A model generated the notes under the pieces. The model did no database searches. It saw only the letters and a program-made list of their open reading frames with translations, and was not told the DNA's origin. From positions 8,453 to 72,452 of the forward strand of contig CAYRYB010000006.1 of the NCBI GenBank assembly GCA_964428395.1: 64,000 nt of DNA, written 5' to 3'. Source of the stretch: an uncultured Methanosarcinales archaeon. GTDB lineage: Archaea; Nanobdellota; Nanobdellia; Woesearchaeales; SKGA01. The position numbers and the translations under genes were made by a program. Of the stretch, positions 6,804-49,480 are shown one piece after another (positions within the stretch are counted from its first letter, which is position 1; each line of letters starts with the position of its first letter).

Positions 6804-9656
6804 TTACTTTTCTGTCACCTCTAAGTAACCAATTTTTACTCGATGAATATCGTTATTAGAGACTGAAATTTCTGGATAATACACACCAGACATAATGTAA
6901 TTAGGTACGTAAGCAAGTATTCGCAACGTAGTTTTCTCACCATCAGCAATATCTACTTCTGCACTCTTAAAGCGAATACCAAAGTCCGGAAGTGAGAATG
7001 TTGCATGAACATCCTTAACATCATATCCCATTGTGTTTGTAATAGTAACATAGATACGGATGTCTTCTCCTACTCTCGCTTTTTCATAACCCGAATTACT
7101 AATAATTTGAACACTGTTCACCTGCAAATTTCTGTTTGTAGCTGTCTGCTCATTACTGCACGTGCCATTAGTAATACGTAATGAAGCAGTCTTTTTATCA
7201 AAGCGACCATCCTCATCAGCAACAAGAAGCGTTACCGAATAAGAACCTTCATCATGCAATGAAGTGGAAATAGTTTTTCCATAAAGCATCTGCACAATAG
7301 TTCCATGAACATCTTTGATAGTCCATTGATATTTTACAATATGCTTTTCTGGATCTGCAGTTGATTGACTTGCATCAAAAGAGAATGTTTCGCATGCGCT
7401 TGCCGTGTCCGGTCCAGAGATAACTGCAACAGGAGTAGCAATGGTGTGAAGAACATGCACAATTATTTTTGCTTTGGATTCATACATTCCATCACTAACA
7501 ACAAGCGTAACACTTGTTGTACCAATACCTTGCAACATGCACGTAAGAGCATTATTATCTAAAGCGCACGTAACGATGTTGTTATCCGTTTCGCTTGTAT
7601 CCAAACCGTATGTAAGCGCGTCACCATCAGGATCATATCCATACGTAGTGACATCAGTAAGCAACACTTTTACAAGAGAAGGAACATACTCATACGTAAA
7701 AGATGAAGGAACATTTCTTAGTTCTGGCGCGCGGTTAGCAGGAACATCAGTTACAACATGAACAACAATCTGAGCAGTAGCAACAGCCTTCCCATCAGAA
7801 ACCTCAACAACAGCAGAAGTAAAACCAACACGATGAGGAACACAAGAAAACAAAGAATCAGCACCAACACGACAAGAAGCAACACCATCAGCACTATTAC
7901 TAACCAAACGAAAAGAAAGACCATCAGAATCAACATCAAAAGCATACCTATCAAGATACACCAACGAAGCAATACCATCCTCCAAACGAATAGTAAACGA
8001 ATCAGCCAAACCAGAAAAATAAGGAGGATGATTAGGAAGAATATTTGTAATAACCTGAATAGTAACAGCACCATTTGCAGATAACTTGCCATCACTTACA
8101 CGCAAAGAAATATTTGTTACACCAACCTTAAAAGGAGAACAAACGAGAACGTTAGATGAGGCATCAATAGAGCAATCAGCAACAGATGGTTCTTCATTAC
8201 CTGTTATTGAAAAGTGAAGTGTGTCATCATCAGGGTCCGTTGCTATTGTATCTAAATCAACAAGTGATTGCGTTCCATTTTCTAAAACCATAACATATTT
8301 TGGTGTTGCGGTAAAGTAAGGTGCGCGATTACAAGGCACATCAGTTACAACATGAACAACAATCTGAGCAGTAGCAACAGCCTTCCCATCAGAAACCTCA
8401 ACAACAGCAGAAGTAAAACCAACACGATGAGGAACACAAGAAAACAAAGAATCAGCACCAACACGACAAGAAGCAACACCATCAGCACTATTACTAACCA
8501 AACGAAAAGAAAGACCATCAGAATCAACATCAAAAGCATACCTATCAAGATACACCAACGAAGCAATACCATCCTCCAAACGAATAGTAAACGAATCAGC
8601 CAAACCAGAAAAATAAGGAGGATGATTCTGTGGAGTGTCATTATACACTGTAATGTACAGCGTTGCGCGTCTTGTAAATTCGTTGTCACTTACAAGAACA
8701 TCAAGTTGTGTTTGCCCAACAGATAAAAGATTACAATGTAATGTTGTCTGCTCTAATGAACAGTCGATGATGTTTGGATTTGTTAATGAAGTGTCCAATG
8801 AGAATGATAACGCATCACCATCAGGGTCCTTTGCAAAATTTGCAAGATTTACAACATCAACACTACGCGCATCATCAATATCATAACGATAATGATCTTG
8901 TAGATTATCAAAATAAGGCGGATGATTTGTTGGCGTTGTCATATTTATTACAGTAATAAAAACCTGAATAGGCACTGGAAATTCTCCATCACTTGCAATA
9001 AGCGTTACATAGGTTCTTCCAACTGCGTAAAACTCACAAGCAAGGGTGCCTTCTTTATTATTATACACGTCACAATCAAGAATTGAAGAATTCATGCCGG
9101 ACTTATCAAGTGTAAACGTTAATGAATCATTATCAGGATCTCTTGCATAGTCTGCAGCGTTAAGCACATTCGCTTGCGTTTGATGAGCAATATCAAACGT
9201 GAACTCATCCATCGCTAAAAAATAAGGAGGGTGATTTGTCGTATCTGTTTTGTTGCTTTTTACAAAAAACTCAAGAAGAGATGTCCAATTTGCGCCGTTG
9301 ATTAAGTCATATGCCGTTCCTTGAATAATATAATGTCCTTGTGTCAAATGACTGGTATCAATAGTATATATTCCACTTGTTCCTTGCATACTTACATTCC
9401 AAACAAGATTAGCAACAGGATTGTCTGCTTCACCTCGAAAGAGGAGATTAATATCTGTCTCAACCATGTGTGTTGCTTTGTGATCATAACTTTCGTATGT
9501 GAAAGAAAGAGGTTGTCCTGCAGTAACTTCTCTGTAACGAACGGTGCCATCAGTCCATGACTGCGTATAGTACACTGTTGCAGATGCTATTGACGCACTT
9601 ACAAAAAGAAGTGCTAAAGCCATAAAAACAAAAAGTAATTTGTTCATTTTGTCCAC
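6804..9656 (-). CDS. Adhesin-like surface protein (950 aa) with at least six tandem ~99-aa He_PIG/cadherin-like domains and a signal peptide
   Basis: Repeated NHPPYF / NRAPYF domain starts. Recurrent D-P-D-G-D-x-L-T/S-F/Y-x-L motifs (DPDNDSLTFTLD, DPDGDALSFSLD, DVDSDGLSFRL, DPDDDTLHFSI, DPDGDALTYGLD) typical of He_PIG/cadherin-like Ca-binding Ig-like domains. N-terminal signal MDKMNKLLFVFMALALLFVSASIASA. Confidence 0.6.
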   Translation of the reverse strand: MDKMNKLLFVFMALALLFVSASIASATVYYTQSWTDGTVRYREVTAGQPLSFTYESYDHKATHMVETDINLLFRGEADNPVANLVWNVSMQGTSGIYTIDTSHLTQGHYIIQGTAYDLINGANWTSLLEFFVKSNKTDTTNHPPYFLAMDEFTFDIAHQTQANVLNAADYARDPDNDSLTFTLDKSGMNSSILDCDVYNNKEGTLACEFYAVGRTYVTLIASDGEFPVPIQVFITVINMTTPTNHPPYFDNLQDHYRYDIDDARSVDVVNLANFAKDPDGDALSFSLDTSLTNPNIIDCSLEQTTLHCNLLSVGQTQLDVLVSDNEFTRRATLYITVYNDTPQNHPPYFSGLADSFTIRLEDGIASLVYLDRYAFDVDSDGLSFRLVSNSADGVASCRVGADSLFSCVPHRVGFTSAVVEVSDGKAVATAQIVVHVVTDVPCNRAPYFTATPKYVMVLENGTQSLVDLDTIATDPDDDTLHFSITGNEEPSVADCSIDASSNVLVCSPFKVGVTNISLRVSDGKLSANGAVTIQVITNILPNHPPYFSGLADSFTIRLEDGIASLVYLDRYAFDVDSDGLSFRLVSNSADGVASCRVGADSLFSCVPHRVGFTSAVVEVSDGKAVATAQIVVHVVTDVPANRAPELRNVPSSFTYEYVPSLVKVLLTDVTTYGYDPDGDALTYGLDTSETDNNIVTCALDNNALTCMLQGIGTTSVTLVVSDGMYESKAKIIVHVLHTIATPVAVISGPDTASACETFSFDASQSTADPEKHIVKYQWTIKDVHGTIVQMLYGKTISTSLHDEGSYSVTLLVADEDGRFDKKTASLRITNGTCSNEQTATNRNLQVNSVQIISNSGYEKARVGEDIRIYVTITNTMGYDVKDVHATFSLPDFGIRFKSAEVDIADGEKTTLRILAYVPNYIMSGVYYPEISVSNNDIHRVKIGYLEVTEK
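7744..8627. repeat. Two copies of a 290-bp perfectly identical segment (7744-8033 and 8338-8627), exactly 594 bp apart, inside the adhesin gene
   Basis: The identical 98-aa stretch NHPPYFSGLADSFTIRLEDG...AQIVVHVVTDVP occurs twice in the protein. Antisense ORFs 7751-8095 and 8345-8689 translate identically. The flanking domains have diverged. Confidence 0.9.
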
Positions 9657-10781
9657 CTAAAACTCGTATGTGAAGGTTACATTTCCCGTATTAAAACCCT
9701 TCATAATATCGTATGCTCCTGCTCGCAAGCCAACACGATTTTTGTTTTTTAACTGATACGTTAAGCCTGCACTTGCATCTATACCGCCATACTTAACTGT
9801 TGAAGAAGTTTCTAATTCATTGGAACGATCAGATGGTTGACGACCTAAAAAGTCACCAGATTCAACGCTATTAAAACGAATTTCATATTCCTTTTGCGTA
9901 TTCTCACTTAACTTTTCAAAGAATGGTCCTGCTGCAACTGTTGCAAAAAAGTTCTTTTTTTTATTAAGAGGAAGAGAGTATGTTGCAGCTGTAGAAAACA
10001 ACGGCATTTCTTCATTGTTTTTTGTTGTAGTAACATATTCTTGAGAACTTATTTTTCCACTTGGAGAAAGACTTTTTCTTCCCATTGGATTTTTTGTTTG
10101 TCCAAGAGATTCTTGTGATGATGGCGCGTTAAGAAAATATTCTCCTTCCACTCCAAAATTTCCAACAGAAGCTCGAAGACCTAAACCATACATGTCATTA
10201 GTAAAGTAAGAAATAACTGGTCCTAAACCAAAACCTTTTTTTGCTATAGGCTCTTTTAATTTATTTTTTTTGCTTTCGTTTGTTACTGCACCATTTTTTA
10301 ACGAGTCAATAACTTGCTCGTATAACGTTTTTTTGATTACAAGACCCATAATTGTTGAGTCGCAGTACGCAGCATCATCATTAACATAGGCTCGCAAATC
10401 TCCTTCTGTTTTATCAACAGCAATTCTTTCGCGATAAATGTCAATTGAACCATCTTTTTTGAATTCCACACCAACAAGTTTTGTTCCACCAATCGCGCTT
10501 TTTTTTGGAAGTTTTGTTTTTTCAAAAAAAGCATCTACATTTTTTGTTGCAATATCTTTTGCTGAAACTACATACGTGTCCCGTGTTGCCGTTGTATCCA
10601 CTGGTTTGACAACATAAACGCCGGGTTTTGTTGGCGCTTGACCAACTTCAAGTGTTTGTAATTTGTTTTCTAAATCTTGCTTGGTTGTCGCTGCATTTTT
10701 TGAAGTTGCACAACTGTGCAAACTAAGTGCGCCAAGACCAGCGAAAATATAAGGTAAAATCATTTGATTGAGTTTTTTCAT
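9657..10781 (-). CDS. Hypothetical lipoprotein-like or beta-strand-rich protein with a C-terminal aromatic residue (OMP-like signature), probably co-transcribed with the adhesin gene
   Basis: The probable start is the internal Met MKKLNQMILPYIFAGLGALSLHSCATSKN (signal plus Cys). The C-terminus ...GLRAGAYDIMKGFNTGNVTFTYEF has alternating hydrophobic residues and a terminal Phe. Its stop codon abuts the start of the 6804-9656 gene. Confidence 0.4.
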   Translation of the reverse strand: MKKLNQMILPYIFAGLGALSLHSCATSKNAATTKQDLENKLQTLEVGQAPTKPGVYVVKPVDTTATRDTYVVSAKDIATKNVDAFFEKTKLPKKSAIGGTKLVGVEFKKDGSIDIYRERIAVDKTEGDLRAYVNDDAAYCDSTIMGLVIKKTLYEQVIDSLKNGAVTNESKKNKLKEPIAKKGFGLGPVISYFTNDMYGLGLRASVGNFGVEGEYFLNAPSSQESLGQTKNPMGRKSLSPSGKISSQEYVTTTKNNEEMPLFSTAATYSLPLNKKKNFFATVAAGPFFEKLSENTQKEYEIRFNSVESGDFLGRQPSDRSNELETSSTVKYGGIDASAGLTYQLKNKNRVGLRAGAYDIMKGFNTGNVTFTYEF

Positions 10782-33646: not shown

Positions 33647-33909
33647 ATATGTAGTAGAACACTTTGCTTCTTTTTATACATTTGCGTCAAAAACTATGCA
33701 AAAGGGAACATATGCTCAAAACAAAAACAGATGTAACAGTATATCCTAACAAAATCCTAACAAAACATCCTTAGAAGAACACAGAGAACGTGCTTTCAAT
33801 AGTATATCATCTATATGACTACAAGAATATCTATATTAAAAAACAATATGTTCTAACATCATATATGACGCAACACAAATATATTTAAAGAAATCAACCT
33901 ATAGCAAAT

Positions 33910-33957
33910 ACACTACATATAGTGTTGTGTGAACAAATAGAACACTACCCGTAGTGT
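33910..33957. promoter_or_regulatory. Pair of NrdR-box-like 16-bp palindromes (ACACTACATATAGTGT at 33910-33925 and ACACTACCCGTAGTGT at 33942-33957), centres 32 bp apart, upstream of the adenosyltransferase gene
   Basis: Two imperfect ACACTA-N4-TAGTGT palindromes directly upstream of the 33980 GTG start. The same motif and the same spacing recur upstream of nrdJ at 37115-37162. Confidence 0.6.
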
Positions 33958-33979
33958 TTTTTCAAAAAAGAGAATACGA

Positions 33980-34561
33980 GTGATTAAGGCGTTAAAAGTG
34001 GCAATAACAACTAAAATCGGCGACAAAGGAAAAACGAACATTCTTTTTGGTCATCAAATAGACAAAACAAGTCCAATTTTAGAAGTAACGGGAACAGTAG
34101 ATGAACTTAACGCAGCTATTGGTATTGCTCGCTCATCAGTAACCGCTCCAGGTCTCAAAGAAGAATTACTCTCCTTACAACATTCCCTTTTTGTCATTGG
34201 TGCTGAAGTTGCCACATTACCAGAAGATTTTTCAAAACTCAAAAGAACTATCACAAAAGAAAATATCAATATGATTGAGAAGAGCATTACACAACTTGAG
34301 AAATATAATGACATAGATAACTGGTTTATTCCCGGAGAATCGCCAAGTTCAGCACATCTGGAATTAGCAAGAACCATTGCAAGAAGACTAGAACGACGAT
34401 TGCTTCAGATTCAACACCATAACGAGCACACAAGAATATTTGTCAACAGACTTTCAGATTATCTTTGGCTCCTCAGTCAAAAAGAAGAATATTACATACG
34501 CGGTATTGAACGAAAAAGCACAGAAGAAACAAGTATTACAGAACAACAAACAACCATTTAA
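33980..34561 (+). CDS. ATP:cob(I)alamin adenosyltransferase, PduO/MMAB type
   Basis: VAITTKIGDKGKTNILFGHQIDKTSPILEVTGTVDELNAAIG matches the PduO-type ATR N-terminal signature (TGDxGxT...GTVDELN). 193 aa. GTG start. Confidence 0.75.
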   Translation: MIKALKVAITTKIGDKGKTNILFGHQIDKTSPILEVTGTVDELNAAIGIARSSVTAPGLKEELLSLQHSLFVIGAEVATLPEDFSKLKRTITKENINMIEKSITQLEKYNDIDNWFIPGESPSSAHLELARTIARRLERRLLQIQHHNEHTRIFVNRLSDYLWLLSQKEEYYIRGIERKSTEETSITEQQTTI

Positions 34562-34707
34562 TGATTTCTTAACGCGACTAAAAAAACTGTTAATAAACGT
34601 AAAACGAATTTTTCTTAGAACAAACAAGATATTTTTAAAACAACTTTTCTTTAAAGAAATACAAAGAAAAAATAAAGAAAAATAGAAAAAATAAAGAAAA
34701 ACTTCAC

Positions 34708-37083
34708 TTAATGCATATCGCAGCCACCAGTAAAACCACAACCAGCATCACACTCGGTGCAACCGCCAACCTTAATCATTGTACCTTTCTTACACATCGG
34801 ACAACGATTGCCAACTTCAGAACCATACACAACACCTTCTTCGTCTTCCTCATCATTTTCACCTTTTACAGAAGATGAATCTTCTACAGGTAAATCTTTC
34901 ATAGACGAAGAATCCTGCGACGTTGTCTCAGCTGGTGGAGCTGATTGCTTATTAGACGAAGCGTTAGGTGTGTGATCTGCAACGTTTTTTTCTCCGGTTG
35001 TAACGTCCGTTGATAAAATTTGTTCATCTCTGGAACCATCACGATAAATAGTTACTCCCTTGCAACCCAAATCAAAAGCGTACTCATACAATTTCATCGT
35101 TTGTTCTACTGTAAAATCCGCAGGAACATTCGCCGTCTTTGAAATTGAAGAATCAGTCCAGCGCTGAATGGTTGCCTGCAATTTTACATGATCTTCTGGA
35201 CCCATGCTCATCGCACTCACAAAAAAAGAAGGTAGTGAGCCATCTGGATTTTTCTTATATTCTTTCACCAAATCAATTTCGACCTCATGAAAACCAAGAC
35301 GACTCTGCTGATAATATTTAAACGCATAAAAAGGTTCAATACCTGTTGATGTTCCCAGCATAGAACCAACCGTACCTGTTGGTGCCTGTGTTAAAAGGGC
35401 AACATTACGAATACCTTTTTTTCGAATAGCTTCATGCACTTGAACAGGCATATGCTTCATAAAACCGCTTTGTAAAAACTTGTCTGTGACAAATTCAGGA
35501 AAGGAACCTTTCTCCTCAGCAATATCTGTTGAGGTTAAATACGCCCGAACAGCAATACGTTTGTAAAGCTTATCAACAAACTCGTTTGCCTTATCACTAC
35601 CAAACGGCAAACGCATACGCACTAAGACTTCAGCAAGGCCAAGCGTTCCGCAACCAACACGACGCTCTTTTAACTGATTCTGTTTAATCTCATCAAAAAT
35701 GTATGGTGTTAAATCAATAATATCATCTAAGAAACGAACAAGTGTTGCTGTTGCATCCTCAAGCGCATCCCAATCAAAGTCAAACAAAGGACCAATCTCA
35801 TCCTCGCCTGTCTTATATACAAAATTATTCAATGCCAAATGCGCAAGATTACAAACACCCCATGCGGGAAGACCTTGTTCTCCACAAGGATTTGTACAAA
35901 TAATATTATTATAATAATAAGAATTACTTAAGTCATTATACCTTCCTGAAAAAACAACGCCTGGCTCAGCACTTTTCCACGCAGAACTAATAAGTCTACT
36001 CCATAAATCCTTTGCGCGAACTGATTTATGCACAACTGTTTTACGCCCTTTTTTCTTCCAGCCAAGTAAGTCGCCATCCCATTCTTTATCATAAATCTCT
36101 TTTGTTTTCTTATCGGCAATGTCAGGAAATTCTAACTGCCATTCCCTGTCCTGTTTTACTGCATCCATAAACTCATTAGAAACCAGAACAGAAAGATTCG
36201 CATTATCTAAAAAACCTATTTGATGCTTCGCGTCAATAAATTCTTCAATATCAGGATGCCAATCAGCAAGCATGAGCATGAGCGCACCTCTACGCGAACC
36301 CCCCTGCTCTATAAGACCTGTTGCGTTAGAATATAAATTTCCCCACGAAACAGAACCACTCGATTTACCATTTACTCCTTTAATGTATGCATACCGAGGA
36401 CGAAGTGTACTTAAATTAATACCAACACCACCCCCACGACTAAAAATTTCTACCATTTGATACAGTGTATCTTTAATAATTGATTTTCTTGAATCACCAG
36501 GAGAAGGAATAACAAAACAATTATACAATGTTAAATTAGATGTGTAGTTTCCCGTCTCATCAACATTGGCTCCCGCCATTATCCGTCCAGCTGGCTGAAT
36601 ATAACCCTTTAAAAGCGTTTGCGTAAATTTTTCTTTATAGAAGGCAGAGTCTTTTTCCACGCTTGCTGTGGCTCGGCCAACTCGTTCATATGCATCATAA
36701 ATGCTCTCTGTAGGTTTATCACATTGTAACTTACTTACCAAAAGAGGTTCTTTACTTTCAGCATACACGCCAGTAATCATGCGAAGTTTCCACTCAGAAC
36801 CCTGACTTGCAACAATAATTCCCAAATCCTTTTTTGGATACTTAGGATGCATTTTTGAAACTACAACAACCAAATCGCCAATAGCAATATTTTCTCGCAA
36901 ATCCTTAATGGCATATCTATCCATAAAAATAATAAGACCCATTTCCTTTAGGAATGTTGAGTTGTTAAGAATATCAATTGCCTTGGCGTTTAATAAAACA
37001 CCTTCCTTTTTTAGTTGACGAACTAAGGGAGCATCAGTTGTTGCTCGCTGTAAATTTGATCCAGAATGTTCATTTGGTTTCAT
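34708..37083 (-). CDS. nrdJ: Class II (adenosylcobalamin-dependent) ribonucleotide reductase NrdJ, catalytically canonical, with a C-terminal zinc ribbon
   Basis: TNPCGEQGLPAWGVCNLAHL (N-x-C-x-E thiyl-radical motif and second redox Cys). NCFVIPSPGDS (first redox Cys). GGGVG. C-terminal CPMCKK...CTECDAGCG after an acidic, Ser-rich linker. Confidence 0.85.
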   Translation of the reverse strand: MKPNEHSGSNLQRATTDAPLVRQLKKEGVLLNAKAIDILNNSTFLKEMGLIIFMDRYAIKDLRENIAIGDLVVVVSKMHPKYPKKDLGIIVASQGSEWKLRMITGVYAESKEPLLVSKLQCDKPTESIYDAYERVGRATASVEKDSAFYKEKFTQTLLKGYIQPAGRIMAGANVDETGNYTSNLTLYNCFVIPSPGDSRKSIIKDTLYQMVEIFSRGGGVGINLSTLRPRYAYIKGVNGKSSGSVSWGNLYSNATGLIEQGGSRRGALMLMLADWHPDIEEFIDAKHQIGFLDNANLSVLVSNEFMDAVKQDREWQLEFPDIADKKTKEIYDKEWDGDLLGWKKKGRKTVVHKSVRAKDLWSRLISSAWKSAEPGVVFSGRYNDLSNSYYYNNIICTNPCGEQGLPAWGVCNLAHLALNNFVYKTGEDEIGPLFDFDWDALEDATATLVRFLDDIIDLTPYIFDEIKQNQLKERRVGCGTLGLAEVLVRMRLPFGSDKANEFVDKLYKRIAVRAYLTSTDIAEEKGSFPEFVTDKFLQSGFMKHMPVQVHEAIRKKGIRNVALLTQAPTGTVGSMLGTSTGIEPFYAFKYYQQSRLGFHEVEIDLVKEYKKNPDGSLPSFFVSAMSMGPEDHVKLQATIQRWTDSSISKTANVPADFTVEQTMKLYEYAFDLGCKGVTIYRDGSRDEQILSTDVTTGEKNVADHTPNASSNKQSAPPAETTSQDSSSMKDLPVEDSSSVKGENDEEDEEGVVYGSEVGNRCPMCKKGTMIKVGGCTECDAGCGFTGGCDMH

Positions 37084-37114
37084 AGTATCACTTCAAACAG
37101 TATAAGTAGTGTAA

Positions 37115-37162
37115 ACACTATATGTAGTGTTTTTTCTTTTCCTCACACACTACATCTAGCTT
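37115..37162. promoter_or_regulatory. Pair of NrdR-box-like palindromes (ACACTATATGTAGTGT at 37115-37130, degenerate ACACTACATCTAGCTT at 37147-37162), centres 32 bp apart, immediately upstream of nrdJ
   Basis: Box 1 matches the bacterial NrdR-box consensus acaCwAtATaTwGtgt at 15 of 16 positions. It overlaps a second palindrome, TAGTGT-AA-ACACTA, at 37107-37124. Confidence 0.6.
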
Positions 37163-37244
37163 TTTGAAAGGTAACTGTTTAAATAATTAACGTGCGTAAA
37201 ATACAACTATCAGAACATAGATACTTTAAAGCATAGACTAAAAA

Positions 37245-39035
37245 CTACTCTTTTGATTCTTGAAATGCAGAAAGTCTCGTTTGTTTTTTTATAGCAAGCG
37301 CTTGATCCTCTCGACAACCATCCCTATAAAGAGTAATACCCTTACAATGAAGCTCATGCGCCAAGAAAATAATGGACGCTACATCCTCTCTTGTTGCATC
37401 ATTAGGAAGATTAATTGTTTTAGAAATAGAATTATCTACAAACTCCTGAAAGGCCGCCATGACCGCAAGGTGCTCTTTAGCACTAATATCCATCGCTGTT
37501 CTATACACTCTTTTAAAATCGTCATCAAGCCAAGAAATGTTTTGTACTGAGTCAACAAATTGTAATTGAATCTTTGCTGTTCTGTCAATAGGTAACGCAT
37601 CAATTGCCTCTTTGAACGATTGATTAAGAATGGTAAACTGTTCTCCCTCACTTGTTTTCGTAGTAAAAGAAAATGCATACACTGGTTCAATAGATTGAGA
37701 TGCACCAGCAATAATACTTGTACTGCCTGTTGGTGCAATAGACGTTATAGAAGCATGACGCATTTGTTTTTTGAAAACAGAATCATGAAAATCGGGAAAA
37801 GGTCCTCGTTGCAAAGCCAGTGCGTGCGATACACTTTGCGATTCTTCCTGAATAATACTCATCAATTTACGAATCACCACCAACGATTTGTCAGAACCGT
37901 ACGCAATATCCATCTTAAAAAGCATATCCGCAAAACCTAAAACGCCCAACCCTATCTTTCTTGAGGCCTTCGTCTTTTTTTCTAAAACGTCATTGATATA
38001 CCTATGCATATCAATACAATTATCAAGAAAATGAACAATGGTGCGAACAAGAGAACGAAGCTTTGTCTCATCGATAACATAAGCACCATTTTTTTGCACG
38101 AGAATCTTTAATAAATTAAGATGTGCATAAGGAACGCCCTCAAAAGATTCTAATTCATACTGACCACATGAGCCTGTACAAAGCACGCGTCTATTCTTAA
38201 AAGGATATTTCTTATTCATTTCATCAATAAAAATTACTCCTGGATCGCCTGTCTGCCAAGATTGCTCAACAATTGCATCAAACAACAATTTAGCTTGAAC
38301 AGAACGCACAACTTTACCATTACGAGGATTGATAAGAGGAAATTCTTTGTTATTCTCAACCGCTTGCATGAACTCATCTGTTACGGCAACAGAAAGATTA
38401 AAATTTTGCAGGGCGCGTAAATCTTGTTTTGCCTCAATAAAAGACATTATGTCTGGATGAGAAATATGCAATACTGCCATGTTCGCACCATTACGACGAC
38501 CGCCTTGAATGATAGCGCTAAAAGAGGTATCGAAAATTTTCATTACACTCATAGGACCAAAAGCAACATTTTTCATTCCAGAAACAGAATCCTTTCGGGG
38601 ACGAATTTTTGAGAAACTAAAGCCGACACCGCCACCTTGCTGTTGAATAGTTGCGCCAAGTTTAAGCACATCAAAAATTTCCTCAACAGAATCAGGCACG
38701 TCAAGAGCATGATCTGAAAATAAGAATTGAAACGTGTTACCTGCATTCATAAGAATAGGAGATGCAGGAATAAAATCCAAATTCACTAAGTGATTAAAAA
38801 AAACTTGCTCAGTTCCCTTCACATTGCCACCGTATTTCTTGTCAGCTAATGCAATGTTTTTTGCAACACGATACAGCATGCCAACACAATCTTCAACAAT
38901 CTCTCCGTCATTATTTCGTCGTAAATAACGCATACGAAGCAAATCCTGAGCAATAGGACTGAGTGTTAAACGTCTCTTATATTCCTTATAATGAGGAATG
39001 CTTGCTTCGTAGTCCGGTGGTAAAACATCCTCCAT
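37245..39035 (-). CDS. Class II RNR-like paralogue (596 aa) lacking the canonical catalytic residues (candidate pseudo-enzyme)
   Basis: Full-length similarity to NrdJ (LRMRYL..., GGGVGFSFSKIRPR, ITLYRDG). The active-site region reads CTGSCGQYELESFEGVPYAHL instead of TNPCGEQ...CNL. The first redox Cys is absent (LFSDHALDVPDS) and there is no C-terminal Zn ribbon. Confidence 0.7.
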   Translation of the reverse strand: MEDVLPPDYEASIPHYKEYKRRLTLSPIAQDLLRMRYLRRNNDGEIVEDCVGMLYRVAKNIALADKKYGGNVKGTEQVFFNHLVNLDFIPASPILMNAGNTFQFLFSDHALDVPDSVEEIFDVLKLGATIQQQGGGVGFSFSKIRPRKDSVSGMKNVAFGPMSVMKIFDTSFSAIIQGGRRNGANMAVLHISHPDIMSFIEAKQDLRALQNFNLSVAVTDEFMQAVENNKEFPLINPRNGKVVRSVQAKLLFDAIVEQSWQTGDPGVIFIDEMNKKYPFKNRRVLCTGSCGQYELESFEGVPYAHLNLLKILVQKNGAYVIDETKLRSLVRTIVHFLDNCIDMHRYINDVLEKKTKASRKIGLGVLGFADMLFKMDIAYGSDKSLVVIRKLMSIIQEESQSVSHALALQRGPFPDFHDSVFKKQMRHASITSIAPTGSTSIIAGASQSIEPVYAFSFTTKTSEGEQFTILNQSFKEAIDALPIDRTAKIQLQFVDSVQNISWLDDDFKRVYRTAMDISAKEHLAVMAAFQEFVDNSISKTINLPNDATREDVASIIFLAHELHCKGITLYRDGCREDQALAIKKQTRLSAFQESKE

Positions 39036-45975: not shown

Positions 45976-46797
45976 ATGAATGAATTATGCAATCGTGTTG
46001 AAGCAATCCTTTTTGCATCAGGCAAGGGTGTCACAGAAGAAGAACTCATTAATTATTGTCAAGTAAAACCACAGGCAATAAAAAAAGCATTAGCAACACT
46101 ACAACAAAACATGGAAGACCGAGAGGGAAGCCTCATTATTTCTTTACACAACAATCGTTGGAAAATGACTGTTAAAGGAAAATATCTTAAAGATGTTGAG
46201 AGTATTGTAAGTGAAACTGAATTGCCCTCAACCATTCTTAAAACATTAGCAATGATTGCTTATAAAAGTCCCGTTCTTCAGTCAGACATTATTCGTATGC
46301 GAGGACAAAGTGCATACGAACACATTAAAGAACTCGTTAAACAAAAATTTGTTACAAAAGAAGAAAGAGGAAGAAGTTTTCTTTTAAAAATCACCGATAA
46401 ATTTTACACCTATTTTGATGTTAAAGGCGATGAAGAAATACAAGAAGTTTTTTCAAAACTTCGTGAAAAGCAAAAAACGTTGGGAAACTTATTGATAGTT
46501 GATACAACAACGCAAGAAAAGTCTTCTACTACATCAAAAGAAGATAAAGAACAATTAGGTGAACTAGATATTGTGAATGTTGCCCCTAAAACAAAAGAAA
46601 GAACAAAAGAGGATGAAGAAAAAGAAAAAGAATTCTTAAATCATATTGATACTAAAATAAACGCTCTTAGTAAGCGAGTTATTGCTCAAGAACTTCCGAA
46701 AAGAGAACAAACAAAGCCAGAAGAAGAAGACCCCTTAAAAGTTATAGAAAAACTTGCTAAAGAACATAAAGAAAAAGAAAAAGATGACTATTTATGA
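45976..46797 (+). CDS. scpB: Segregation and condensation protein B (ScpB) with a Lys/Glu-rich C-terminal extension
   Basis: VEAILFASGKGVTEEEL...SETELPSTILKTLAMIAYKSPVLQSDIIRMRGQSAYEHIKELV is the tandem winged-helix ScpB pattern. Confidence 0.65.
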   Translation: MNELCNRVEAILFASGKGVTEEELINYCQVKPQAIKKALATLQQNMEDREGSLIISLHNNRWKMTVKGKYLKDVESIVSETELPSTILKTLAMIAYKSPVLQSDIIRMRGQSAYEHIKELVKQKFVTKEERGRSFLLKITDKFYTYFDVKGDEEIQEVFSKLREKQKTLGNLLIVDTTTQEKSSTTSKEDKEQLGELDIVNVAPKTKERTKEDEEKEKEFLNHIDTKINALSKRVIAQELPKREQTKPEEEDPLKVIEKLAKEHKEKEKDDYL

Positions 46798-47014: not shown

Positions 47015-49480
47015 GTGAAAAAAGACCAGCAAACAGCAGATAAAAACAACCTATTCGGTGATGAAAAGCAAGAACACATTCGTCCTGTAATCATTGAAAA
47101 TGAAATGAAAACAGCATACTTAGATTATGCAATGTCTGTTATTGTCGGTCGAGCATTACCTGATGTCCGAGACGGCTTAAAACCAGTTCATCGACGTATA
47201 CTTTTTGCTATGAATGAAATGGGTATTACGTTTTCTAAGTCAACGAAAAAATCAGCAAGAATAGTTGGAGAAGTATTGGGTAAATATCATCCTCACGGCG
47301 ATAGCGCAGTTTATGAAAGTTTAGTTCGTATGGCACAAGATTTTTCTCTACGATATCCTCTCATTAAAGGACAAGGAAACTTTGGAAGTGTCGATGGTGA
47401 TAGTGCAGCAGCAATGAGATACACTGAAGCAAAACTTGCCAAAATTAGCACTAGCATGCTTGCAGATATTGAAAAAGAAACTGTTGATTTTCGACCAAAC
47501 TTTGATGATAGTTTAAAAGAACCTGTTGTTTTACCAGCAGGATTACCAAATCTTTTAGTTAATGGATCAAACGGTATTGCCGTAGGAATGGCAACAAACA
47601 TGCCTCCACACAATCTTAATGAAATTAGCGATGCAATAATTGCACTTATTGATGATGAAAGCATTGGTATAACAGAACTTTGCACATACGTACAAGGTCC
47701 TGACTTTCCAACCGGAGCAAATATCATTGGAATTGCAGGAGCACAACGAGCATATCATACGGGACGAGGAAAGGTTCTTGTCCGAGCAAGTCTACATATC
47801 GAAGAAGTTCGTGGACGACAAGCAGTTATCATTACAGAAATACCTTATCAAGTTAATAAAACTGCATTAATTGAACAAATTGCAGAAGCTGTTCGTGATG
47901 GACGTATAGAATACGTTAGTGACATTAGAGATGAATCAGACAGAACGGGCATGCGTATCGTTATTGAACTTAAAAAAAATGCAAACCTTGACGTCGTGCA
48001 AAATCAACTTCTTAAACATTCCAGACTACAGACAACGTTGAGCATGATTTCCTTAGCAATTGTTGATGAGCAGCCAAGAGTACTTAATCTTAAAGAACTC
48101 ATGCAACAATTCATTGCTCATCGAAAAGAAGTTATTACAAGAAGAACAACATTCGATCTTCGCAAAGCAGAAAAAAAAGTACACCTCTTAGAAGGTCTAA
48201 CAAAAGCGCTTGATAACATTGATGCAATTATTTCACTTATTAAAAAAGCAAAGGCTGCTCAAGACGCAAAAGAGCAATTGATACGCAATTATTCTTTTAG
48301 TGATGAACAAGCACAAGCAATCTTAGATATGAAATTACAACGACTCACCAATCTTGAACAAGGAAAGATTAGAGAAGACTATAAAGCAACAATAGAACTC
48401 ATTAAAGAATTTAAAAATATTTTAGCAAGTGAAGAAAAAATAAAGAATATTGTTAAAGAAGAGCTTCAAATAATTAAAGGACAGTATGGTGATGCCCGAA
48501 GAACAAAAATAGAACTTGTTGAAGACGAAGAGATAGATGATGAGGACCTTATTCCAAAAGAGGATCAAATAATCACCATCACCAATTCTGGTTATGCAAA
48601 ACGCTCACCAATAGACACCTATAAAGTTCAAAATAGAGGGGGAAAAGGAGTAATAGGAGCCAGTATGAAAGAAGAAGATGTTATTGAGCACCTCTTTATT
48701 GCAAACACACATTCACACTTACTTATTTTTACCGATAAAGGAAAGGTATATTGGCTTAAAGTATATCGCATACCTGAAAGTTCACGACAAGCGAAAGGAA
48801 AAGCCATTGTTAACTTGGTACAACTATCATCAGAAGAAAAAATAGCCGCGGTTATACCTGTAAAAGAATTTTTAGCAACTAATTACTTACTGCTTGTCAC
48901 AAAAAAAGGCGTCATAAAAAAAACAAGCCTTGAAGCATATTCTCATCCTCGACAAACAGGAATTATTGGAATTACACTTGATGAAGGTGATCGAGTCATA
49001 CGCGTTCTTAAAACAAATGGTTCACAAAATATTCTTTTAGCAAGCAGACAAGGTCAAGCAATACGATTCAACGAACAAGATGCGCGACCAATCGGGCGTA
49101 CAAGTAGAGGAGTACGAGGAATGCTATTGAAAAAAGATGATAGTATCATAGGTGCAGTCATTGCTAAAGACGAAAATACCCTATTAACCGTTACCGAAAA
49201 TGGATATGGAAAAAGAACACCTGTTACTGATTACAGACTCATCAATCGAGGGGGAAAAGGAGTACGCAATATTATTTGTAATGCGCGTAATGGAAATGTA
49301 GCCAGCATTCGTACAGTGGCTGGCGATGAAGAAATGCTACTTATTTCGCGAAAAGGAATTATTATCAGAACATCAGTAAATCAAATTAGCATTATCGGTC
49401 GAAATACACAAGGTCTGCGCGTTATGAGACTCACAGAAGGCGATCAAGTAAAGGCAACAGCACTTGTACAGCTTGAATAA
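47015..49480 (+). CDS. gyrA: DNA gyrase subunit A
   Basis: [26 protein letters not shown], the AAMRYTEA active-site Tyr region, and a C-terminal beta-pinwheel repeat region. 821 aa. Confidence 0.9.

Follow-up and report, generated by a model that had tools for sequence, protein, structure and literature searches.

Two NrdR-type box pairs at the pduO and nrdJ promoters

The stretch of DNA analysed here, referred to as the window, comprises 64,000 nucleotides of contig CAYRYB010000006.1 (positions 8,453 to 72,452). The window is archaeal and comes from a member of the Woesearchaeota with a small genome; it contains PCNA, RadA, aRF1, L34e, STT3 and SecY and has a GC content of approximately 35%. 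Two of its genes, pduO and nrdJ, encode an adenosyltransferase that makes adenosylcobalamin and a ribonucleotide reductase (RNR) that depends on it, and each is preceded by a pair of 16-bp palindromic boxes resembling the sites bound by the RNR repressor NrdR. The genes and promoter features are as follows.

33880..33890, plus strand: TATA-like element of the pduO promoter, TATATTTAAAG; presumed promoter function
33910..33925, no strand assigned: predicted NrdR box, distal, pduO promoter, ACACTACATATAGTGT; perfect palindrome, six of six critical positions
33942..33957, no strand assigned: predicted NrdR box, proximal, pduO promoter, ACACTACCCGTAGTGT; perfect arms, CC centre replacing AT, four of six critical positions
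33998..34561, plus strand: pduO, PduO-type ATP:cob(I)alamin adenosyltransferase; alternative start GTG at 33980
34708..37083, minus strand: nrdJ, adenosylcobalamin-dependent class II RNR of 791 amino acids, without ATP-cone and with a Cys-rich C-terminal tail
37097..37112, no strand assigned: degenerate fifth box, ACAGTATAAGTAGTGT (gene strand ACACTACTTATACTGT); one pattern mismatch, at critical G13/C4
37115..37130, no strand assigned: predicted NrdR box, proximal, nrdJ promoter, ACACTATATGTAGTGT (gene strand ACACTACATATAGTGT); perfect palindrome, six of six critical positions
37147..37162, no strand assigned: predicted NrdR box, distal, nrdJ promoter, ACACTACATCTAGCTT on the plus strand (AAGCTAGATGTAGTGT on the gene strand); imperfect palindrome
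37178..37190, minus strand: TATA-like element of the nrdJ promoter, TTAATTATTTAAA on the gene strand; presumed promoter function

The original prediction, made from the sequence without database searches, had named a PduO-type adenosyltransferase and a class II RNR at this locus, and both gene calls were upheld. The pduO product matched TIGR00636 with 145.5 bits (cut-off 108.45) and the Pfam family Cob_adeno_trans (PF01923) at 1.6e-43, and NrdJ matched TIGR02504 with 519.6 bits (cut-off 400) and its Pfam barrel domain at 1.7e-114. NrdJ contains the catalytic TNPCGE motif and both redox Cys residues, and its C-terminal tail carries the Cys-rich pattern CPMCKKG...CTEC..GC....C. The GTG at 33998 was taken as the start of pduO because the N-terminus that follows, (M)AITTKIGDKG, is conserved and lines up with the ATG start of a sister gene (L008). 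In two other sister contigs, L003 and L130, the codon aligned to this start is ACG and an in-frame stop lies two codons upstream, which suggests either a non-canonical start or a miscalled gene in those sequences.

The same prediction had described four ACACTA-N4-TAGTGT palindromes in two pairs with 32-bp spacing. The box starts are indeed exactly 32 bp apart in both pairs, and the linker is therefore 16 bp, yet three of the four palindromes are perfect and the fourth, at 37147-37162, departs from symmetry at positions 14 and 15 while retaining C4, A6, A8, T9, T11 and G13. The prediction also missed the degenerate fifth box at 37097-37112. With a distance of 18 bp to the proximal nrdJ box it is out of helical phase; it was not seen at this position in sister promoters, and it resembles the non-binding 'box 0' of E. 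coli nrdAB. From its sequence and position it is probably non-functional.

The perfect motif occurs three times in the 64-kb window and was absent from 100 dinucleotide-preserving shuffles. The two box stretches, each of about 65 bp, also hold 8 of the 22 ACACTA hexamers in the window. When the window was scanned for two boxes at 31-32 bp spacing with at most five mismatches in total, only the pairs at the pduO and nrdJ promoters were recovered. The same scan of 1.48 Mb, made up of the window and related loci, returned 26 pairs as against 0.05 in shuffles, and these pairs lay upstream of nrdJ, nrdR or pduO wherever their position was checked.

Fit of the boxes to the NrdR site definition

An NrdR site consists of two partially palindromic 16-bp boxes separated by a linker of 15-16 bp, and NrdR does not bind unless the two are present together (PMC13584703; PMC9110341). 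Within the box, positions C4, A6, A8, T9, T11 and G13 are highly conserved (PMC13584703). All six are present in three of the four window boxes, and the linker is 15 or 16 bp long in every sister pair. The window boxes are, moreover, nearer to an ideal palindrome than boxes from E. coli and S. coelicolor that are proven to bind NrdR. As far as sequence can tell, these results support the assignment of the window boxes to NrdR operators as so defined.

Placement of the boxes on archaeal promoters

The distal pduO box begins 20 bp after the TATA-like element in the window. The pduO promoters of four sister lineages (L003, L130, L005 and L008) have A/T-rich TATA-like elements (TATTTAAAG, TATATTTAAAT, TTTTAAAC and TATATATAAAC) located 19-21 bp before the distal box. 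Two minus-strand RNR genes are separated by a spacer of 161 bp that contains the nrdJ pair. Within it the pair takes up the interval 31-79 bp before the nrdJ ATG, and a conserved TATA-like box precedes the pair by 15 bp. This element, TTAAYTATWTAAA, is kept in L130, L003, L005, L008 and L043, at 13-24 bp upstream of the distal box. Across all of these promoters a TATA-like element thus precedes every distal box by 13-24 bp (15-20 bp in the window).

Archaeal TATA boxes are usually centred approximately 26 bp before the transcription start. Because of this usual distance, the distal box is predicted to lie over the start and the proximal box in the early transcribed region, so that each pair should cover the start predicted from TATA spacing. 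The archaeal repressors MDR1, LrpA and Phr bind at or just downstream of the TATA box and TFB-recognition element (BRE) and block recruitment of RNA polymerase. The predicted placement of the boxes is one often found among archaeal repressors, and it also matches the location of NrdR sites in bacteria.

Conservation of the box pairs in sister lineages

Orthologous loci from eight further lineages (L130, L003, L005, L006/L044, L008, L043, L045 and L010) were collected by way of their NrdJ homologues. The longer sister contigs keep the gene order RNR paralogue, nrdJ, inverted pduO, NFACT, RsmB. The nrdJ box pair, at 31-32 bp spacing, was found in seven lineages including the window, with NrdJ identities of 69-79%, and the pduO pair in five. 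In one of these (L005) the pduO pair has diverged, and the changes include a symmetric one of the ACGCTA...TAGCGC type. The two most distant lineages of the clade, L010 and L045, had no pair at the nrdJ promoter or at the pduO promoter.

When six nrdJ promoters were anchored on the proximal box, column conservation was 0.95 in that box, as against 0.55-0.59 in the flanks and linker; the distal box had an intermediate value of 0.73. Conservation was also uneven within the boxes. In the 24 clade boxes C4 was present in 24, A6, T11 and G13 in 23 each, and A8 and T9 in 20 each; C4, T5, A12 and G15 were invariant, and positions 1-3, 7 and 10 were variable. The pattern of the distal nrdJ box, with variable positions 1-3 and a fixed C4...G13, is common to L130, L003, L005, L008 and L043, and the proximal pduO box also has a CCCG or CCCT centre in L003 and L130. 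Judged from these alignments, the box pairs are phylogenetic footprints.

nrdR-nrdJ-adenosyltransferase operons in other DPANN archaea

The same boxes were found in front of a bona fide nrdR elsewhere in the DPANN archaea. On one strand of contig L048 a TATA element is followed by ACACTACATGTGGGAA, a 16-bp linker, ACACTACATATAGTGT, nrdR, an nrdJ that encodes an ATP-cone, and pduO, with NFACT and RsmB beyond. Its NrdR matched TIGR00244 with 202 bits (cut-off 125). The contig is archaeal, with an aMBF1 above the equivalog cut-off and with RqcH_arch as a best match. A TATA element and box pair also precede nrdR-nrdJ-pduO on a 1.07-Mb contig (L126/127) and in an NCBI Woesearchaeota metagenome-assembled genome (MAG; L128/129). 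On L123 (6001-9572) a box pair is followed by nrdR-nrdJ-cobA, in which the CobA-type enzyme is non-homologous to PduO. Operons of this form, with a CobA/CobO-type enzyme (TIGR00708-like) in the position of PduO, were observed in L123, L067, L073, L077, L081-L084 and L090. The replacement of PduO by CobA is a non-orthologous displacement within the same regulon.

In a further DPANN contig, L092, nrdJ-pduO is preceded by only the last 33 codons of nrdR (9584-9682), and the locus yielded no NrdR box pair. To judge from the sequence, the regulator appears to have been lost along with the operator.

A scan of metagenomes with an NrdJ alignment yielded 80 loci, in nine of which nrdR lay directly upstream of nrdJ by tblastn. 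In the metagenomic sample an adenosyltransferase gene, of PduO or CobA type, adjoined nrdJ at 23 of 54 AT-rich loci versus 0 of 26 GC-rich loci. Among the 120 closest relatives of the L048 NrdR, all 13 proteins named by NCBI belong to DPANN archaea, and NCBI annotation of NrdR exists in MAGs of Woesearchaeota, Nanoarchaeota, Aenigmarchaeota and Micrarchaeia.

Box pairs were also observed in a group of loci with 56-59% NrdJ identity (L051, L061, L063, L068, L071, L072, L074 and L086), as ANCCTACATCTTGTGT followed 32 bp later by ACACTAGATGTAGTGT. From these pairs to the NrdJ tblastn match downstream of them the distance is approximately 700-750 bp, and the pairs are probably immediately ahead of the N-terminal ATP-cones. 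The group is possibly of Patescibacteria, and nrdR was not found in the fetched flanks of its loci.

Interpretation of the box pairs and the missing nrdR

The two palindrome pairs are probably operators on archaeal promoters for a canonical NrdR, with zinc ribbon and ATP-cone. A canonical NrdR is the most likely reader because conservation of the boxes is tight and NrdR-specific, and because of the control provided by L092, where regulator and box pair are missing together.

A number of observations weigh against this interpretation, and most of them concern the whereabouts of nrdR. No nrdR was found in the window by tblastn, Pfam or profile search. A profile built locally as a hidden Markov model from approximately 120 DPANN NrdRs, and run on six-frame translations of the window and eight sister loci, likewise found none within the up to 10 kb fetched on either side of nrdJ at the sister loci (best E 0.4). 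None of the nine clade members carries nrdR at this locus. At every other DPANN locus where nrdR was found, including three of three NrdR-side loci, it lies directly upstream of nrdJ; an unlinked nrdR in the window clade is for this reason an assumption. A 784-kb sister contig had no NrdR match among the best 120 NrdR relatives, and the proximity of NCBI accession numbers within MAGs tied no NrdR to the clade. Two further points concern the boxes themselves. The proximal pduO box has its CC centre and four of the six critical positions, and both the transcription starts, which are taken from TATA spacing alone, and the binding of NrdR are predicted. Non-AT box centres are, for their part, tolerated by NrdR in vitro (PMC13584703).

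Three NrdR proteins that were looked up, those of L126/127, L128/129 and L123, were not from the window clade; all came from nrdR-nrdJ-adenosyltransferase operons of other lineages. A scan of genome contigs with NrdJ gave only two distant loci.

The absence of nrdR from the locus could alternatively mean that the boxes are operators for some protein that is not a canonical NrdR, such as an unrelated factor or an NrdR derivative that has diverged strongly, and that nrdR was lost when an ancestral nrdR-nrdJ-pduO operon was rearranged. This would agree with the place directly upstream of nrdJ being occupied by a probably dead RNR paralogue, with the failure to find nrdR in approximately 200 kb of clade DNA, and with the result for the 784-kb contig. 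The part of each genome that was seen is small, however, and the list of the best 120 NrdRs ends at 58% identity. Conservation in the boxes follows the NrdR-critical positions and not those of any palindrome, the clade boxes cannot be told apart from those that precede true nrdR genes elsewhere in the Woesearchaeota, and the locus with a decayed nrdR yielded no box pair. We therefore consider a different reader unlikely. The stronger form of this idea, in which the clade has lost nrdR altogether and the conserved nrdJ and pduO boxes are read by a different factor, is suggested by the conserved dead RNR paralogue in the place of nrdR and by the loss of the ATP-cone from NrdJ, and it seems to us similarly improbable. 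If it were true, regulation of deoxynucleotide synthesis in the clade would have been rewired around a pseudo-RNR.

A local transcription factor was considered as reader of the boxes and rejected; the window encodes a single such factor, of the TrmB family, whose gene is 15 kb away and shows no conserved linkage.

It is far less probable that the palindromes act in RNA, as hairpins in the 5' leader that affect stability, termination or translation. Each perfect box can fold into a 6-bp stem with a 4-nt loop, and the proximal boxes are probably within the transcribed leader, given a Shine-Dalgarno-like GTGAT before the nrdJ ATG. The distal box, however, lies across or ahead of the predicted start, a constant phasing of two boxes at 31-32 bp is characteristic of NrdR sites and not of hairpins, and no Rfam family matched the region. 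In the distal boxes of 12 promoters, moreover, only three or four of the six arm pairs are self-complementary in 9, yet all six critical bases are present in 10. Symmetry has thus been lost while the critical bases were kept, which argues for recognition by an NrdR-type protein rather than for an RNA hairpin.

The idea that the palindromes belong to some general repeat, or arose by chance, and have no particular connection to nrdJ or pduO is effectively refuted: single boxes with two mismatches do occur elsewhere in the window at about the chance rate (9 versus 2.5 expected, five of them at the two promoters) and phage contigs contain an unrelated palindrome family, but three perfect boxes were found against none expected, pairs occur at the two promoters only, and they are held at orthologous positions in up to seven lineages while the flanks diverge.

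The phage palindromes came to light in a scan of IMG/VR for the perfect operator, in which 30 of 31 matches belonged to a family with the sequence ACACTATAGGTAGTGT and only L038 was NrdR-like. The 30 viral contigs (within L012-L042) have a GC content of approximately 0.43 and carry ACACTATAGGTAGTGT palindromes in pairs 15-16 bp apart, for example at 2985-3032 of L012. No match to the NrdJ, RNR paralogue (RNR596), PduO or NrdR queries was found nearby in these contigs. The core of the palindrome resembles an SP6-type phage promoter. The family is unrelated to NrdR and would contaminate naive operator searches.

Proposed regulation and origin of the locus

If the box pairs are indeed NrdR operators, nrdJ and pduO are probably switched on and off together. 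By analogy with the proteins of S. coelicolor and E. coli, tetramers of NrdR carrying dATP together with ATP would occupy the two boxes and exclude RNA polymerase from the start site. Carrying ATP alone, NrdR would assemble into oligomers that cannot bind, and the DNA would be freed. High dATP would then co-repress nrdJ and pduO, and a shortage of deoxynucleotides would induce both, so that newly made apo-NrdJ would be matched by a supply of adenosylcobalamin. The model assumes that nrdR acts in trans from elsewhere in the genome.

The locus in the window also suggests, by comparison of gene order, a split and rearranged form of the single-operator nrdR-nrdJ-pduO operon, since other Woesearchaeota and DPANN contigs have a TATA element and the same box pair before nrdR-nrdJ-pduO (or cobA). 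The operon form was taken as ancestral because it is widespread. In the rearranged form pduO would have been turned round in its place between nrdJ and NFACT, and a separate operator copy would keep it under the same control.

The RNR paralogue and other neighbouring genes

The gene directly upstream of the nrdJ promoter encodes a second RNR homologue.

37245..39035, minus strand: RNR paralogue of 596 amino acids; passes the NrdJ hidden Markov model cut-off

This gene holds the position taken by nrdR in other Woesearchaeota. In its product TGSCGQ replaces TNPCGE, so that the residues aligned to the catalytic Asn and Glu are missing, and both residues aligned to the redox-active Cys of T. maritima NrdJ are also missing. 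The same substitutions were found in six of six lineages checked (orthologues in L130, L003, L005, L006, L008 and L010). The sequences indicate that the paralogue is probably a conserved pseudo-enzyme that is catalytically dead. No box pair was found upstream of it in the box scans of the window, and as far as was seen it is outside the regulon.

The nearest named relatives of NrdJ, among the matches listed, are from MAGs of Woesearchaeota, Nanoarchaeota and Nanobdellota, at 63-79% identity. An ATP-cone is absent from NrdJ throughout the clade and present in almost all of the next-closest homologues, which are from DPANN and Patescibacteria and show 55-59% identity.

The archaeal window also contains a gene for DNA gyrase subunit A (47015-49480, plus strand), which adjoins ScpB (45976-46797).

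Novelty and significance

The comparison bears out the remaining structural claims of the original prediction. The operator architecture it recognised was borne out by box size, linker and critical positions and by the occurrence of the same boxes before genuine nrdR genes; joint control of the adenosyltransferase gene gained support from the pduO pairs in five lineages and from the nrdR-nrdJ-pduO operons; and comparison of orthologous promoters showed both the pairs and their spacing to be conserved. Its view that NrdR is essentially bacterial, and its operator unexpected in an archaeon, did not stand. NrdR is reported in 22% of archaeal genomes (PMC13584703), was described in haloarchaea in 2010 (PMC3019208) and is annotated in DPANN MAGs. 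The claim that the coupling of adenosylation to a B12-dependent RNR was undescribed is overstated. A gene cluster in Lactobacillus delbrueckii (PMC5997447) and the adjoining genes at 23 of 54 AT-rich loci speak against it, but no paper was found in the literature searched that explicitly places an adenosyltransferase in the NrdR regulon, nor any on NrdR in DPANN archaea. An explicit NrdR regulon of nrdJ and pduO, and the duplication of the operator after an operon split, thus appear to be undescribed, but are incremental.

The box pairs are real and the predicted NrdR-type regulon is well supported. The finding extends the known NrdR system soundly, though mostly as would have been expected, and it leaves knowledge of how NrdR works unchanged. 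It provides a clean comparative-genomics example of probable NrdR control on archaeal TATA-type promoters in DPANN. In B12-scavenging organisms with small genomes, it places the adenosyltransferase that activates the cofactor in the NrdR regulon, either through an operon or through a second copy of the operator. It should help the annotation of regulons, and it offers an example of a regulon kept after its operon was broken up.

Comparison with known systems

In bacteria the RNR operons nrdRJ and nrdAB of S. coelicolor and nrdAB, nrdHIEF and nrdDG of E. coli are repressed by NrdR through NrdR boxes (PMC9110341, PMC13584703). The window resembles these systems in having two 16-bp boxes, a linker of 15-16 bp, the critical bases, a site over or just after the predicted start and an RNR target. 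It differs from them in its archaeal TATA-type promoter and in a stand-alone adenosyltransferase gene as second target; the regulator gene was not seen in the fragment, and the operator is a predicted one. The 32-bp spacing is also that of the M. tuberculosis NrdR sites at +15.5 and +47.5 (PMC4428469).

The nrdJ-cbrS-cbrT-pduO cluster of L. delbrueckii (Rodionov 2009; Santos 2018, PMC5997447) likewise couples an adenosylcobalamin-dependent RNR in the genome to the PduO that makes its cofactor. Unlike the window locus it is a bacterial operon that includes a B12 transporter, and control by NrdR is not discussed in the cited text. The haloarchaeal nrdR-nrdAB and nrdR-nrdBA clusters, which were acquired from bacteria (Lundin 2010, PMC3019208), share with the window an archaeal setting and RNR genes, and in them nrdR adjoins the RNR genes. 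In contrast to the window, their RNRs are class I, they belong to a different archaeal phylum and they include no cofactor gene. The repressors MDR1, LrpA and Phr are like the predicted NrdR sites of the window in operator position relative to TATA and differ in protein family, so that the likeness is positional only.

Close counterparts are also the operons of other Woesearchaeota and DPANN archaea, which share with the window the boxes, the TATA-to-box spacing, the three functions involved and an NFACT/RqcH gene downstream. Those operons have one operator, an autoregulated nrdR in cis and an NrdJ with an ATP-cone, whereas the window clade has two operators, an inverted pduO, no nrdR at the locus, an NrdJ without an ATP-cone and a probably dead RNR paralogue upstream.

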